Shown piece by piece: positions 6,626 to 46,529 of a stretch of 64,000 nt of DNA. Positions within the stretch are counted from its first letter, which is position 1. Each line of letters begins with the position of its first letter. The stretch covers positions 64,001 to 128,000 of the IMG/VR virus record IMGVR_UViG_3300028376_000003; one strand, given 5' to 3'. Made by a program: the position numbers and the translations under genes. The notes beneath the pieces were generated by a model. That model saw only the letters and a program-made list of their open reading frames with translations, ran no database searches and had not been told where the DNA came from. The stretch comes from a virus.

Positions 6626-6850
6626 GTGAGAGAAAATTTAGAGGATGTTGTTGTTGATATAAAAAGTTTCAATAGAAAAAAGAAGTTAATACAGTTAGGT
6701 ATTGGAAATGAAGACACATATAAAGACTTTATTCTAGGAACAATGGATTTCGGAGATTGTGAGACGGAAAGGATATTCGGTATAGCACTGGGACTTATGA
6801 CAATAGAACAACTTAAAAAAATGGTAGAAGCATATGAAAGTAATATCTAA
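6626..6850 (+). CDS. Hypothetical protein, possibly the 3' half of the 6444 gene
   Basis: Frame is open back to 6575 and overlaps the upstream ORF at a T6 run (6577-6582). Confidence 0.5.
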   Translation: MRENLEDVVVDIKSFNRKKKLIQLGIGNEDTYKDFILGTMDFGDCETERIFGIALGLMTIEQLKKMVEAYESNI

Positions 6851-7490
6851 AATAGACACAAGAATTTTGGTCAAAGGAGGGGAATATGAGGTTAGCACGA
6901 TGTTCAATAGTGGTAACCAATGGTCTGAAAAAATATATCTAAAAGGTGTTAGTAATTACTATAAACCTAGTGATTTTACTTGCTTAAACAAAAAATCCTT
7001 ACCAAAAATATATTACCAAGCAGAAAAAGAAAAAATTAATGAAATTAGAAAAGGGTCTTTACTTGAGTGTATTGGTGTTTTTAAATCTCTATTTAAAAAT
7101 AGAATTTATGTAGTAGAGTCTGTTTTTTATTCGACTACTATCAATACAGATGTGTCTATTAAATTTAAGGGAATTGATAGAGTGTTCAAGTTTTCTAAAA
7201 ACAATTTCAGAGTATTATCAAAATCAGAATCAAGGACAACTAATATTAATATAATCAATGATAACGATAATAGAGTGATAACTAGTAATGGTGTTAATTA
7301 TTCTAAAATTGCCGACACAAGCGAAGTATTAACGAGTATATTTCAATCAGTATGTGACAAGAATAGAAATAATCTATCGATTGAAAAATGGGCAGTTTCT
7401 AAAATAAATAACAGATTAAATATCGAAGATTTGGAAAAATATAAAAATATGACATTGGACGAAATATTAAAAATATTAAATGAAAAATAG
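6834..7490 (+). CDS. Hypothetical protein
   Basis: 218 aa ORF overlapping neighbours, operon-like. Confidence 0.7.
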   Translation: MKVISKIDTRILVKGGEYEVSTMFNSGNQWSEKIYLKGVSNYYKPSDFTCLNKKSLPKIYYQAEKEKINEIRKGSLLECIGVFKSLFKNRIYVVESVFYSTTINTDVSIKFKGIDRVFKFSKNNFRVLSKSESRTTNINIINDNDNRVITSNGVNYSKIADTSEVLTSIFQSVCDKNRNNLSIEKWAVSKINNRLNIEDLEKYKNMTLDEILKILNEK

Positions 7491-25478: not shown

Positions 25479-25551
25479 CGCGGGGTAGAGCAGTAGGTAG
25501 CTCGCTAGGCTCATAACCTAGAGGTCGTTGGTTCGAGTCCAACTCCCGCTA
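25479..25551 (+). tRNA. tRNA-fMet (CAT), initiator type
   Basis: Cloverleaf; C1:U72 mismatch; ctagg-CTCATAA-cctag. Confidence 0.9.
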
Positions 25552-37765: not shown

Positions 37766-37794
37766 AAATAAATTTAAATCTTTTTAAAAAACAC

Positions 37795-37905
37795 TTGTGA
37801 GAAACAAATATTAGTTATATATTTGCACAGAACCTAAAATAATTTAAACTTTTAGTAAAAAAAAGAATATAAATAACCAAAGGAAGAAATAAAATTTAAT
37901 ATATA
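37795..37905 (+). promoter_or_regulatory. Stacked promoter cassette (TTG-N20-TATATTTG; AAACTTTT-N14-TATAAA; TTAATATATA)
   Basis: Motifs at 37795-37825, 37846-37873, 37896-37905; near-duplicate at 42504-42613. Confidence 0.65.
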
Positions 37906-37911
37906 ATAGTG

Positions 37912-38031
37912 ATGAAAAATTTAAACCTAAATACAAATAGAAACTTAACGCTCAATGTGGTGAATATTATGTTATGTAATAGACCATCTAGGGGTTCTAG
38001 TGTATTTAATAAATTTCATCTTATGACATAG
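37912..38031 (+). CDS. Attenuator leader peptide 3 (MKNLNLNTNRNLTLNVVNIMLCNRPSRGSSVFNKFHLMT)
   Basis: Codons 3-24 encode only N/L/T/R/V/I/M/C, the amino acids of the 11 downstream tRNAs. Confidence 0.82.
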   Translation: MKNLNLNTNRNLTLNVVNIMLCNRPSRGSSVFNKFHLMT

Positions 38032-42460: not shown

Positions 42461-42503
42461 AACTCTATATATTAAAAAAGATTATTTTAATTTAAAAAAA
42501 ACC

Positions 42504-42613
42504 TTGTATAAACCATTTATTTATATTATATTTGCATAGAAATAATATAATTCTAAACTTTTATAAAAAAAAGTCTATAAATAACCATAGAGAGAAATAA
42601 AAGTTAATATATA
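42504..42613 (+). promoter_or_regulatory. Stacked promoter cassette (TTG-N20-TATATTTG; AAACTTTT-N13-TATAAA; TTAATATATA)
   Basis: Motifs at 42504-42534, 42555-42581, 42604-42613. Confidence 0.65.
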
Positions 42614-42620
42614 AAACATA

Positions 42621-42725
42621 ATGAAAAATTTAAACTTAAACATAGTAGTTAACCCTCAACCCCAAGTTGATATCGATCAGGATTCTGATACGAAAGGTGC
42701 TAACTATGTTTTAAATTTAAGTTGA
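42621..42725 (+). CDS. Attenuator leader peptide 4 (MKNLNLNIVVNPQPQVDIDQDSDTKGANYVLNLS)
   Basis: PQPQVDIDQDSD block before a terminator and (Asp-Gln-Pro)x2 tRNAs. Confidence 0.82.
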   Translation: MKNLNLNIVVNPQPQVDIDQDSDTKGANYVLNLS

Positions 42726-42743
42726 TATTTAAATAATAAAAAC

Positions 42744-42783
42744 AAAAACTCGGTTAGTCTTTTAGATTAACCGAGTTTTTTTT
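42744..42783 (+). terminator. Attenuator terminator 4
   Basis: aaaaactcggttagtct-ttt-agattaaccgagtttttttt. Confidence 0.9.
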
Positions 42784-42791
42784 GTTTATAT

Positions 42792-42864
42792 AGCTCTGAG
42801 GTCAAATGGTTAAGATGTACGTCTGTCTCACGTAACGGAGTGGGTTCGATTCCCATCAGAGCTG
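42792..42864 (+). tRNA. tRNA-Asp (GTC)
   Basis: tacgt-CTGTCTC-acgta; G73. Confidence 0.85.
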
Positions 42865-42876
42865 CTAATATTAAAT

Positions 42877-42950
42877 TGCCCCATAGTGTAATTGGCTAAC
42901 ACATCTGGTTTTGGTCCAGAAGATTGCAGGTTCGAACCCTGCTGGGGTAA
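42877..42950 (+). tRNA. tRNA-Gln (TTG)
   Basis: tctgg-TTTTGGT-ccaga. Confidence 0.9.
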
Positions 42951-42959
42951 CAAGTTAAT

Positions 42960-43033
42960 CGAGAAGTGACTAAGGTTATAAGCACGGGTGCATTGGAGGC
43001 ATCAGTTAGCAGGTTCGATTCCTGTCTTCTCGA
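42960..43033 (+). tRNA. tRNA-Pro (TGG)
   Basis: ggtgc-ATTGGAG-gcatc; C1:G72, A73; weak D-arm. Confidence 0.78.
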
Positions 43034-43045
43034 CAAATTTTTAAT

Positions 43046-43117
43046 AGTCCATTAGTGTAAAGGTTATCATTTCCGACTGTCTCTCGGAAGATAGGGGTTC
43101 GAATCCCCTATGGACTG
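43046..43117 (+). tRNA. tRNA-Asp (GTC), second copy
   Basis: tccga-CTGTCTC-tcgga; G73. Confidence 0.85.
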
Positions 43118-43123
43118 CAAAAA

Positions 43124-43197
43124 TGCTCTATAGTGTAATTGGTTAACACGTCTGGCTTTGGTCCAGGAGATTGTAGGTTCGAACCCTACTGGGGCAA
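43124..43197 (+). tRNA. tRNA-Gln (TTG), second copy
   Basis: tctgg-CTTTGGT-ccagg. Confidence 0.9.
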
Positions 43198-43206
43198 CAA
43201 GTATAG

Positions 43207-43279
43207 CGAGGGTGTAGTGTAATCTGGTAACACACGATGTTTGGGACATCGAATTGCTGTTCGAATCGGACATCTTCGA
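43207..43279 (+). tRNA. tRNA-Pro (TGG), second copy; 8-bp acceptor and short T-stem
   Basis: cgatg-TTTGGGA-catcg; cgagggtg/catcttcg. Confidence 0.72.
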
Positions 43280-43302
43280 CAAAAATTATAGTTAAAACTA
43301 AA

Positions 43303-43351
43303 TGTTGTTAATAAGCAACATTTTAGCACTTTTTGTTGTTAATAAGCAACA
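43303..43351. repeat. Two copies of the 18-nt imperfect palindrome TGTTGTTAATAAGCAACA
   Basis: Identical copies at 43303-43320 and 43334-43351. Confidence 0.8.
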
Positions 43352-43416
43352 AAAAAAATTAACACAAAAAACAACATATAATTCAAACTAAACTGTTATA
43401 TTTGAATATATAGTAT

Positions 43417-43869
43417 ATGGATCGTATATATAAAATTAAGTTTGATGTTACTGATGAAGAGTTAGATGACCTATTTATGTATTTCTCTGATGAAGACCTA
43501 GATGATGTTGAAGAGTTAGAGGCTGAGGCATATTTCTATTTTCACGAAGAAGGTAACTATGTATGTTATTTAATAACTACTGAGGTAGAGATGAGAACTT
43601 ACGTGGGTGTTATGGATAAAAACAAAATAAATATATATGTTAAAGATTTTTCCGATAGAATATTAAATTCAACTGTTAATCTAGAAGATAACTTAAGACA
43701 TAACATCGATAAGGAAAATTGTGAAGACTTTGAAGACTTCATTATTTGCCTAAATGAATGGGTTCTTGGAAAATTAGATATAGACTTTGTATTAGATAGG
43801 ATATCTAGCGTAGGAATTGATAATCTAACAGAAAATGAAAAATACTTTTTAAACTCATATAAAATATGA
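43417..43869 (+). CDS. Hypothetical acidic protein
   Basis: 150 aa; C-terminal LDIDFVLDRISSVGIDNLTENEKYFL. Confidence 0.7.
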   Translation: MDRIYKIKFDVTDEELDDLFMYFSDEDLDDVEELEAEAYFYFHEEGNYVCYLITTEVEMRTYVGVMDKNKINIYVKDFSDRILNSTVNLEDNLRHNIDKENCEDFEDFIICLNEWVLGKLDIDFVLDRISSVGIDNLTENEKYFLNSYKI

Positions 43870-44246
43870 ATATATTCTTAGATGATATAAGAGAACCAAA
43901 TATGTCACATAATAAAACTAAAGGATTAGGTAATGAATATTCTGATTCTAATAAATGGATTATAATAAGAGATTATTTTTCTTTCATTAAATTCTTAGAT
44001 GATAATATAGAAAATATAACACTTATATCATTTGATCACGACATAGCTTCATATAAAGATAGTAAAGAATACACTGGTAAAGATGCTGCCAATTATTTAA
44101 TAGAGATATGTTTAGATAATAGTTTAAAAATGCCTAAATGGTATGTACATTCTGACAACACAGTTGGTGCTCATAATATAAATAGCATACTACATAACTA
44201 TGTTAGGGTTGTTGAGCAGTTTAAAGGTCCAAATCACCACCTCTAG
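43866..44246 (+). CDS. Cyclic-phosphate-processing receiver-domain protein
   Basis: IFLDDIREP, ISFDHD, TGKDAANYL, VHSDNTVG..NI. Confidence 0.75.
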   Translation: MNIFLDDIREPNMSHNKTKGLGNEYSDSNKWIIIRDYFSFIKFLDDNIENITLISFDHDIASYKDSKEYTGKDAANYLIEICLDNSLKMPKWYVHSDNTVGAHNINSILHNYVRVVEQFKGPNHHL

Positions 44247-45296: not shown

Positions 45297-45815
45297 ATGA
45301 AGCCAGCCTTAAACATATCCGAATTAAAGACACCATTTATCATAATGTTGATTGGATTACCACTATCTGGCAAAACCACTTGGATTAAAGAGAATATACT
45401 AAATATGAAAGGTTATGAAAATATTGATATTATATCTAGAGATGATATAATTATGGAGTTATCAAGTAGTGATGATTATAATAAGTCTTATTCAGAAGTT
45501 GATGAGAAAGAAGTAAATACACTATTAAGAGAAAGGCTCATAGAATCTAACAAAAATAGAAGATGTGCTATTGTTGATATGACTAATATGTCTAAAAAAA
45601 GAAAAAACACTCTTAACTATTTTAAAAAAGATTATACTAGAGTAGCTATTTTATTCCCTTTGTTAGATGATGAAAAGTATACTATTAGAAATGATAAAAG
45701 AAAACGAGAAGAAAAAAAGCATATCTCCTTAACAGTATTAAAGGATATGTTAGAAAAATACGCAATTATTAATGAGGAAGATAAATTTGATATAGTAGTT
45801 ACCGTTGAAAAATAA
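45297..45815 (+). CDS. P-loop kinase, polynucleotide-kinase/AAA_33-like
   Basis: IGLPLSGKTTW, ISRDDI, IVDMTN, RNDKR. Confidence 0.8.
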   Translation: MKPALNISELKTPFIIMLIGLPLSGKTTWIKENILNMKGYENIDIISRDDIIMELSSSDDYNKSYSEVDEKEVNTLLRERLIESNKNRRCAIVDMTNMSKKRKNTLNYFKKDYTRVAILFPLLDDEKYTIRNDKRKREEKKHISLTVLKDMLEKYAIINEEDKFDIVVTVEK

Positions 45816-45827
45816 ATAAAAATATAA

Positions 45828-46529
45828 ATGAAGTATTTAGGGAGTAAGAATAGAATATCTAAGTACATATTGCCAATTATACTAGAAGGTAGAACTAATG
45901 GACAATATTATGTCGAGCCTTTTGTGGGTGGTGGGAACACAATTGATAAAGTTGGTGGCAATAGAATTGGTTCTGATAGTAATAAATATATGATAGCACT
46001 ACACAAAGCTTTACAAAAAGGCTGGATACCACCAAAGAATGTGTCTAAGGAAGAATATCTACATTTGAAGGATAACAGAGATGATTATCCACTTGAAATG
46101 GTTGGTTACTTTGCTACACAACTAGTATTCGGTAGTGTGTGGTTCGGCTCTTATAGAAGAGATAACAAAGGAAATAGAGACTATGATATTGAAGCATATA
46201 ATAATGTTATGAAACAACAACCAAATCTAACAGATGTTGAATTTGTTTGTTGTAGCTATGAGTGTCTAGATATACCACCAAACAGTCTTATTTATTGCGA
46301 TCCACCTTATAGAGGTGCTAGACCTTATATTGGTGATAATAAAATTAATCATAATATGTTTTGGGACTGGTGTAGAAAGGCATCAAATGAAGGTCATCAA
46401 GTATTTATAAGTGAATATAATGCTCCTGATGATTTTGAATGTGTGTGGGAAAAAGAAATATCATCAAGTGGGAATGGGATAACAGATAAAAAGTTAAGAG
46501 CCACAGAAAAACTATTCACAATAAAATAA
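45828..46529 (+). CDS. DNA adenine methyltransferase (Dam/D12-like)
   Basis: MKYLGSK, YVEPFVGGG, YCDPPY, ISEY. Confidence 0.9.
   Translation: MKYLGSKNRISKYILPIILEGRTNGQYYVEPFVGGGNTIDKVGGNRIGSDSNKYMIALHKALQKGWIPPKNVSKEEYLHLKDNRDDYPLEMVGYFATQLVFGSVWFGSYRRDNKGNRDYDIEAYNNVMKQQPNLTDVEFVCCSYECLDIPPNSLIYCDPPYRGARPYIGDNKINHNMFWDWCRKASNEGHQVFISEYNAPDDFECVWEKEISSSGNGITDKKLRATEKLFTIK

Follow-up and report, generated by a model that had tools for sequence, protein, structure and literature searches.

A probable ribosome-mediated leader-peptide attenuator in front of six phage tRNA genes

The fourth tRNA cluster and its genome context

We analysed a 64,000-nucleotide stretch of phage DNA (the window), which corresponds to bases 64001-128000 of the 141.5-kb contig IMGVR_UViG_3300028376_000003, and focused on positions 42,621 to 43,279, where a short open reading frame (ORF) precedes the fourth cluster of tRNA genes. 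The order on the plus strand is promoter motifs, the short ORF, a strong terminator and, 8 nt past the U tract, six tRNA genes (Asp-Gln-Pro-Asp-Gln-Pro). The upstream gene, of 741 codons, is divergent, and the terminator therefore serves no upstream gene. This arrangement is probably a ribosome-mediated leader-peptide transcription attenuator that gates the six phage tRNA genes. The ORF, the RNA pairings, the terminator and the order of the six tRNAs had been put forward in the original prediction for this DNA, and each was found where it had been placed.

The same design, a short leader ORF and a terminator before tRNA genes, was found at all four tRNA clusters of the window, in which the 20 tRNA genes detected by ARAGORN in the contig all lie. 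When both strands of the 141 kb were scanned for hairpins followed by a U tract, 28 strong sites were recovered, and four of these sit between a short ORF and a tRNA cluster.

The contig has a G+C content of 28.7% and an estimated completeness of ~20% (CheckV). The phage-collection records similar to it were solely LR745206.1 and LR756502.1, uncultured phage genomes of 635 and 642 kb; in a study of huge phages, all genomes larger than 634 kb belonged to the Mahaphage clade, whose predicted hosts are Bacteroidetes (PMC7162821), and the two records may belong there by their size. DNA nearly identical to the window is present in lake-water and salt-lake metagenomes, and none of the sequencing runs listed with this DNA is recorded as RNA. 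An alternative genetic code was considered and dropped, as the long ORFs are fine under table 11 and the contig is without a suppressor tRNA.

The leader ORF and its sensor codons

The leader ORF (42621..42725) has 34 codons from ATG to TGA, and 22 related loci preserve its reading frame together with the start and the stop. Codons 12-23 (42654..42689), which we refer to as the sensor run, contain 2 Pro, 3 Gln and 4 Asp codons, and these nine of the 12 are cognate to the downstream tRNAs. The contig has 526 ATG ORFs of 20-60 codons, and no other one has such a run, the runners-up having six; the probability of nine in a random 34-mer with the amino-acid composition of the phage is ~1.8e-5. Each of the four leaders in the window scores best with its own tRNA set, and only the true assignment, one of the 24 permutations, reaches the total score. 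After adding two leader types from relatives, the own set was again best and 1 of 720 permutations reached the total.

The motif NPQPQ is shared by nine leaders, with 0, 0 and 3 variable sites at codon positions 1, 2 and 3, and all four Pro codons are represented at its second Pro. Variation that is confined to third positions indicates selection on the reading frame and not on the RNA sequence. Among the Pro codons of the motif (window 42654-42662) in the nine leaders, CCA was found in 1 of 18 cases; this codon makes up 55% of the Pro codons in the long ORFs of the phage and pairs with the anticodon UGG by Watson-Crick rules. In the leaders, the hardest codons to decode may be favoured.

The part of the sensor run that encodes Asp-Gln-Asp, GATCAGGAT (window 42675-42683), is invariant in the first 12 leaders, third positions included, with Gln always encoded by the rarer CAG. 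A later scan for relatives required GATCAGGAT, and the loci that it returned were excluded from this count. Judged from these 12 leaders, the invariance is a constraint beyond coding. The segment also holds a GATC site, and a gene for a D12-class adenine methyltransferase is located at 45828-46529.

Alternative pairings, terminator and folding

Four regions of the leader RNA can enter alternative pairings. Region 1 (42627..42654), the 5' strand of the anti-antiterminator, pairs with 42696-42723 in the unconstrained minimum-energy fold and includes a 9-nt string (42638-46) complementary to 42703-11. The core of region 2 (42694..42723), at 42699-42712, pairs with either region 1 or region 3. Region 3 (42745..42760) consists of the 5' arm of the terminator together with the preceding AAAAC, and it pairs with region 2 in an RNA that ends before the 3' arm and carries a ribosome on codons 8-17; the 2:3 pairing, 42699-712 with 42745-58, has 7 + 5 pairs flanking a 2-nt internal loop. 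Region 4 (42764..42783), as given by the computed fold, is made up of the terminator's 3' arm (42764-75) with the U8 tract (42776-83) behind it. The core of the terminator is thus a 12-bp stem, 42749-60 with 42764-75, followed by eight U; the terminator-like hairpin at 42744-80 has 17 pairs including an A/U extension.

The unconstrained fold of the 170-nt stretch contains the 1:2 pairing and the terminator at -48 kcal/mol (z = -7.6), and none of 200 shuffled sequences was as stable. Ribosome states were folded on a nascent RNA that stops just before the 3' arm, since folds of the full-length RNA cannot discriminate between them. Without a ribosome, regions 1 (42627-54) and 2 (42696-723) paired with each other, and the terminator's 5' arm was free. 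With a ribosome on the sensor run, 12 of the 14 nt of this arm paired with 42694-712, and with a ribosome at the stop codon the arm was without a partner. The same three states were obtained in 12/12 leaders when everything behind the ribosome was masked: a ribosome on the sensor left 9-13 of the 13-15 arm nucleotides paired with region 2, and one at the stop codon left the arm unpaired with region 2.

In a model with a 29-nt ribosome footprint, the stalls that permit the antiterminator run from the first codons to a sharp boundary, which falls 0 to +3 codons past the last Pro/Gln/Asp sensor codon in 19/19 modelled leaders. For the leader in the window, single-ribosome stalls at Pro12, Gln13, Pro14, Gln15 and Asp17 permit the antiterminator in the fold model.

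The terminator (42740-42787) has an A tract on one side and a U tract on the other, and it was also recognised when the minus strand was scored. It could also halt antisense transcription that runs from the tRNA cluster toward the divergent 741-codon gene.

Related leaders and conservation of the pairings

Pattern scans of viral contigs and of the two huge-phage records, from which many chance matches in coding DNA were filtered out, gave 22 loci with homologous leaders beyond the window, in other metagenomes. All 22 leaders run from ATG to stop: 20 have 27-35 codons, one is cut to 22 codons by an upstream stop, and one has 53 codons from its first in-frame ATG and 29 from an internal start. 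Common to all loci are the Pro/Gln/Asp run and, beginning 18-29 nt after the stop, the stem of a hairpin that a U tract follows. Wherever downstream DNA is available, the tRNA genes begin with Asp, Pro and/or Gln; a tRNA-Ser is added in one cluster and a tRNA with an unassigned anticodon loop in some, and in two nearly identical loci the tRNAs begin only at 722 nt beyond the terminator.

Several relatives carry extra Gln tRNAs in a separate block, which has a terminator and a leader of its own; this leader has 16-17 codons, four to seven of them forming a Gln run. Such Gln-run leaders directly precede two to four tRNA-Gln genes in L001 (2468-2581), L002 (2500-2608), L028, L029, L037, L043 and L055, and the contig of the window has none. 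Because separate Gln blocks possess Gln-run leaders, leader content follows tRNA content through cluster rearrangement. Leaders of this family are widespread among giant phages with Bacteroidota-type hosts; gene callers miss them because the ORFs have only 16-43 codons.

A leader of another type, in which Thr, Tyr, Gln, Pro, Lys and Gly are abundant, was seen in L004 (minus strand, 6763-6924), L005 and L012. The clusters behind it open with tRNAs for Pro and Gln, and those of L004 and L005 also contain Tyr, Gly, Thr and Lys tRNAs farther on.

Across 11 aligned leaders, 90% of the terminator stem is paired and three of its pairs show compensatory changes; these values are reached by 1/500 and 4/500 shuffles. 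The core of region 2, GCUAACU, stays CUAAC among these leaders (CUAAU in one). The 3' arm of the terminator bears CUAAC or UUAAC, and since it shares the motif of region 2, regions 2 and 4 compete for one GUUAG site. Three relatives in which the terminator stem has been replaced still hold GUUAGU, the complement of region 2, in the upper stem and loop. The outer helix of the antiterminator varies in sequence between leaders and stays complementary. In a MAFFT alignment of the antiterminator this outer helix was broken by indels, and 76.5% of the cells were paired, compared to 27-51% in slid controls; we did not count the covariation from this alignment as strong evidence.

The potential for both pairings, 2:3 and 1:2, was kept in 12/12 relatives and in 8/8 relatives. 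Cognate 2:3 duplexes had a mean of -14.5 kcal/mol as compared to -12.6 kcal/mol for non-cognate ones (reached by 77 of 20000 permutations), and the corresponding means for 1:2 duplexes were -14.6 and -12.5 (181 of 20000). The attenuator with mutually exclusive stems that had been proposed for this locus is thus supported by folding, by statistics and by the 22 related loci.

Four metagenomic DNA contigs differ within the attenuator and tRNA cluster by G42666A (Val16 to Ile), by the loss of one U from the U tract and by C43195T, and in the 5' untranslated region (UTR) by an inserted A at 42564. This variation is too small for testing the pairings.

The six tRNA genes and the backup idea

The cluster comprises tRNA-Asp(GUC) copy 1 (42792..42865; 50.7 bits with Rfam), tRNA-Gln(UUG) copy 1 (42877..42951; 64.6 bits), a non-canonical tRNA-Pro(UGG) (42960..43033), tRNA-Asp(GUC) copy 2 (43046..43118; 58.5 bits), tRNA-Gln(UUG) copy 2 (43124..43198; 63.9 bits) and tRNA-Pro(UGG) copy 2 (43207..43280; 40.1 bits). 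All are on the plus strand, and all except the non-canonical tRNA-Pro are also called by ARAGORN. That gene is found in the window by Rfam alone, with 30.4 bits (cut-off 29). Its anticodon loop carries UGG, and ARAGORN, which misses it here, calls its orthologs tRNA-Pro(UGG). Among 10 orthologs, compensatory changes occur at 10 of the 19 pairs of the acceptor, anticodon and T arms, and the D region of 17 nt (UGACUAAGG...) is invariant and predicted to be unpaired. By these substitution patterns, the odd tRNA-Pro gene is a conserved structured RNA. Orthologs were seen in L001, L002, L004, L010, L011, L012, L015 and L018; most have C33 instead of U33, and two read AGG, not UGG. The ACUAA of the odd tRNA-Pro could pair with UUAG in its variable region.

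The Asp and Pro copies were predicted to have divergent bodies and the same anticodons, and we found identities of 69% and 63%, respectively, with 88% for the Gln copies and shared anticodons throughout. The doubled Asp-Gln-Pro order is likewise real; its description as a single duplicated unit did not stand, as Asp1, Asp2 and the odd Pro gene have closer relatives in other phages (75%, 78% and 84%) than their partners in the same genome (63-69%). For each Gln gene, the closest relative is the other Gln gene. Since the relatives of the Asp and Pro genes lie outside and the Gln pair inside this genome, the doubled order reflects old, separately maintained paralogs together with one recent duplication. 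A doubled Gln-Pro-Asp order was found in three relatives, with up to four Asp genes per cluster.

The tRNA copies were also suggested to be diversified backups against sequence-specific nucleases, an idea that is neither supported nor excluded by our analysis. The anticodon loops of the two Asp genes (42824-42830 and 43077-43083) are identical, CUGUCUC, which weighs against it; the Gln loops differ at position 32, and the Pro loops at positions 32, 37 and 38. Both Asp loops have U at position 37, which is usually a purine in bacterial tRNA-Asp; in relative L001, some Asp genes have A37 and one has U37. The backup idea is in line with the hypothesis that phage tRNAs evade host tRNA nucleases through changes in the anticodon loop (PMC10264068).

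Downstream of the cluster, a protein with a PF20274 cyclic-phosphate-processing receiver domain (1.8e-18) and an AAA_33/KTI12 P-loop kinase are encoded at 43866-44246 and 45297-45815. From their domain assignments, the two proteins could form an RNA-end healing module. Genes for RtcB or RNA_ligase were not found in the 141-kb fragment, which is uninformative because the fragment is ~20% complete. Just past the last tRNA, at 43301-43358, a 16-nt element (GTTGTTAATAAGCAAC) occurs twice and gives rise to two hairpins; the first GTTGTTAATAAGCAAC hairpin is followed by four U and may be a weak operon end.

Promoter and start-site motifs

A candidate promoter of the host type (Bacteroidota) is located at 42504..42534, on the plus strand and 94 nt 5' of the leader ATG, with TTG at 42504-06, a 20-nt spacer and TAnnTTTG at 42527-34. 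Of 11 related Pro/Gln/Asp leaders that were checked, 10 also have TAnnTTTG, at a distance of 52-94 nt from the leader ATG on its 5' side, and in most of these a TTTG lies a further ~20 nt upstream. The combination of TAnnTTTG with an upstream TTG or TTTG presumably agrees with the -33/-7 promoter consensus of Bacteroidetes, and we regard the element as a candidate for a host-type promoter. A sigma-70 scan gave 9 sites against 6.4 expected and was uninformative for this host type. A Shine-Dalgarno sequence is absent before the leader ATG, as is usual in Bacteroidota.

The motif TAATATATA (42605..42613, plus strand), 8 nt 5' of the leader ATG, is a second candidate, for a phage-specific promoter or start-site element. 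It has the form T(T/A)ATATATA, usually after a T run, and occurs in 76 copies in the contig as compared to ~45 expected under a first-order model. Copies lie 5-25 nt 5' of many ORF starts, of leaders 2-4 and of the tRNA-Met at 25479; example sites in the window are 42474 (minus strand), 26382, 37897 and 25454. Because the motif precedes many ORF starts and exceeds expectation, T(T/A)ATATATA may be a phage-specific promoter that yields very short 5' UTRs.

Leaders 3 and 4 (37786-37935 and 42495-42644) share 77% identity from the promoter to codon 8 and 48% afterwards, in the sensor and switch. On this comparison, they appear to be paralogous cassettes with exchangeable sensor/switch inserts.

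A model of attenuation and the alternatives

From the sequence parts, their conservation, the stall geometry and the folding potential, we infer translation of the ORF, its coupling to transcription and the physiological signal as follows. Transcription would begin 5' of the 34-codon ORF, and a ribosome would translate the nascent RNA. If Pro, Gln or Asp codons (codons 12-23) were decoded slowly, the ribosome would still cover region 1 as region 3 emerges; region 2 (42694-712) would then capture the terminator's 5' arm (42745-62) and prevent the hairpin from forming, and the polymerase would enter the Asp-Gln-Pro-Asp-Gln-Pro genes. If decoding were fast, the ribosome would reach the stop codon at 42723 and cover region 2, the 12-bp/U8 terminator would form, and transcription would end at about 42783. 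Without translation, regions 1 and 2 would pair, and termination would follow as well. The net effect would be negative feedback, with tRNA output proportional to how badly the Pro, Gln and Asp codons are read.

Several points weigh against this model. Its support comes from sequence, statistics, folding and comparison, and transcription-translation coupling is assumed both for the host phylum and for the polymerase that uses these promoters. The antiterminator core (GCUAACU with GGUUAGU) is near-invariant, and its covariation score is reached by 15 of 500 shuffles; the formal covariation of the 2:3 pairing is weak because this core hardly varies. With the ribosome masked, the full-length RNA always folds to the terminator at equilibrium. 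Since the terminator always wins, the model needs the usual kinetic assumption, and the same is true of classical attenuators. On the window's Asp codons 19-23, a lone ribosome frees the strong-helix region 1 to recapture region 2, and read-through from these stalls requires, in the model, a trailing ribosome or a steric block. Several relatives retain Gln codons in the Pro/Gln/Asp leader even though their Gln tRNAs follow a second attenuator. In addition, the switch cannot distinguish a shortage of tRNA from a shortage of amino acid.

This last point bears on a first alternative, in which the same switch answers another signal, such as general translation stress, amino-acid starvation (uncharged tRNA) or a timer of the infection stage, and which we consider improbable. 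That a stalled ribosome cannot separate missing from uncharged tRNA is established for the trp, his and leu attenuators, and the host-type and phage-type promoter-like motifs before the leader suit stage-dependent use. General translational stress also induces the tRNA array of Anabaena (PMC8421152). A general-stress sensor, however, needs no codons of its own cluster, yet every leader fits its own set best, and the relatives that place Gln behind a separate Gln-run leader speak against a general signal; nor does extra tRNA give relief from amino-acid starvation. Alternatively, the hairpin could be a constitutive terminator or insulator, partly leaky or bidirectional, and the ORF a conserved micro-protein or upstream ORF that senses nothing. 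The A and U tracts that make the hairpin a good minus-strand terminator suit this explanation, as does the fact that the N-terminus of the peptide is conserved, both in leaders 3 and 4 and in the relatives, which can also be attributed to this part doubling as region 1. We give it a low probability, because it leaves unexplained that the variable middle of the leader tracks the identity of the downstream tRNAs, that region 2 is complementary to the terminator arm even where the stem has been replaced, and that the switch point tracks the last sensor codon in all 19 modelled leaders.

It is very unlikely that the switch works through RNA alone or in trans, with the leader binding a tRNA or its precursor and no translation taking place, either as a T-box does or by way of the GACUAA/UUAGU motifs shared with the odd tRNA-Pro. 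The motifs of regions 2 and 3 do recur in the D region and variable region of that gene. An uninterrupted 11-nt match was seen in relative L037 between region 2 of its leader and the 5' portion of the odd tRNA-Pro, whose variable region resembles region 3. This likeness could indicate that the switch descended from a tRNA gene, or be due to chance. The shared motifs are short and mostly invariant, so that they may reflect chance or common descent; Rfam detects no T-box or other cis-regulatory family, and third-position-only variation together with the kept start, stop and frame indicates translation. Finally, short ORFs abound in AT-rich DNA, as the 526 in this contig illustrate, and one might have come to lie before a terminator by chance. 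This explanation has a negligible probability and is already refuted by the comparative data, namely the 22 conserved loci from other metagenomes and the recurrence of the design at four clusters of the window, in addition to the improbable composition of the leader (p ~1.8e-5). Attenuation by ribosome stalling on the leader therefore remains our preferred reading.

Relationship to known regulatory systems

The element resembles the multivalent leaders of enterobacteria (thrL for Thr/Ile and ilvL of ilvGMEDA for Ile/Leu/Val, as well as hisL, trpL, pheL and leuL) in having a promoter-proximal short ORF with a run of regulatory codons, alternative 1:2, 2:3 and 3:4 pairings, an intrinsic terminator and a stop codon whose position lets the terminating ribosome cover region 2. 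In terms of the features that define such attenuators, we found a conserved ORF, a cluster of cognate codons, an intrinsic terminator, a predicted 2:3 antiterminator that is exclusive with both the terminator and the 1:2 pairing, and the appropriate stall geometry (for Asp 19-23, with a trailing ribosome). The genes that follow are six tRNA genes instead of genes for amino-acid biosynthesis or an aminoacyl-tRNA synthetase. Unlike the enterobacterial leaders, the phage element would thus regulate tRNA genes and feed back on decoding capacity, not on amino-acid supply; it also belongs to a phage of a Bacteroidota-type host and has no sequence or Rfam relation to them.

The pheM leader of Escherichia coli pheST controls the phenylalanyl-tRNA synthetase operon by leader-peptide attenuation, and a component of the translation apparatus is there, too, controlled by sensing how fast cognate codons are read. 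pheM differs in that it concerns one amino acid, a cellular gene and a synthetase protein, whereas the phage element would yield tRNAs for three amino acids. T-box riboswitches also choose between a terminator and an antiterminator in a 5' leader in answer to a specific tRNA state, and they control translation-related genes; however, they bind uncharged tRNA directly, without translation, and the phage leader has no specifier loop, T-box motif or Rfam match. At gathering thresholds, Rfam returned only tRNA matches over the whole window, and no Trp, His, Leu or Thr leader or T-box; with E up to 1, the non-tRNA matches in 42780-43300 were two weak ones far under the cut-offs.

Anabaena sp. PCC 7120 has a long tRNA array (trn operon) that is induced under translational stress (PMC8421152) and is repressed by TrcR (PMC10272220). 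Both systems involve supernumerary, horizontally mobile tRNA genes that are normally silent and come on when translation is impaired, as we propose for the phage. Unlike the phage leader, the Anabaena array is controlled at the promoter by a protein repressor acting on direct repeats, and it is neither codon-specific nor of phage origin; the terms attenuat-, leader and terminator are absent from PMC8421152. Full-text searches aimed at attenuation or leader-peptide control of tRNA genes gave no description of it, the nearest case being this repressor-controlled array. The phage element would therefore be a known design, the leader-peptide attenuator, here on tRNA genes and outside any described attenuator regulon.

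Phage tRNAs have also been discussed as a counter-defence against host tRNA nucleases (PMC10264068, PMC11464382 and PMC11555353). As in those phages, there are several tRNAs per anticodon and altered anticodon loops; those papers treat the function of the tRNAs and not the switching of their genes, and the phage described here is known from its sequence alone. The leader could be the sensing half of a counter-defence circuit, in which the loss of host Pro, Gln or Asp tRNAs to a nuclease of the host or of a competitor, or a phage demand for these codons beyond what the host pool can serve, stalls ribosomes on the leader and switches on the matching, diverged and possibly nuclease-resistant isodecoders. 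We regard this extension as doubtful. If it were true, the circuit would be a demand-driven repair of the translation apparatus for each codon family, and it would account for the retention, behind one sensor, of old and divergent paralogs that share an anticodon.

Significance for phage tRNA biology

The purpose of phage tRNAs has long been debated between codon compensation and escape from tRNA-targeting defence, and the control of their genes is almost unknown. Leaders 3 and 4, which share a promoter/5' cassette and differ in their sensor inserts, suggest compact, modular and codon-specific sensors for synthetic biology. If the attenuation model is true, a textbook mechanism for monitoring amino-acid supply would apply to the translation machinery itself as well, and the attenuators would give a direct read-out of which tRNAs limit phage translation. 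The phage would then gauge the speed of decoding for each codon family and top up only what is short.

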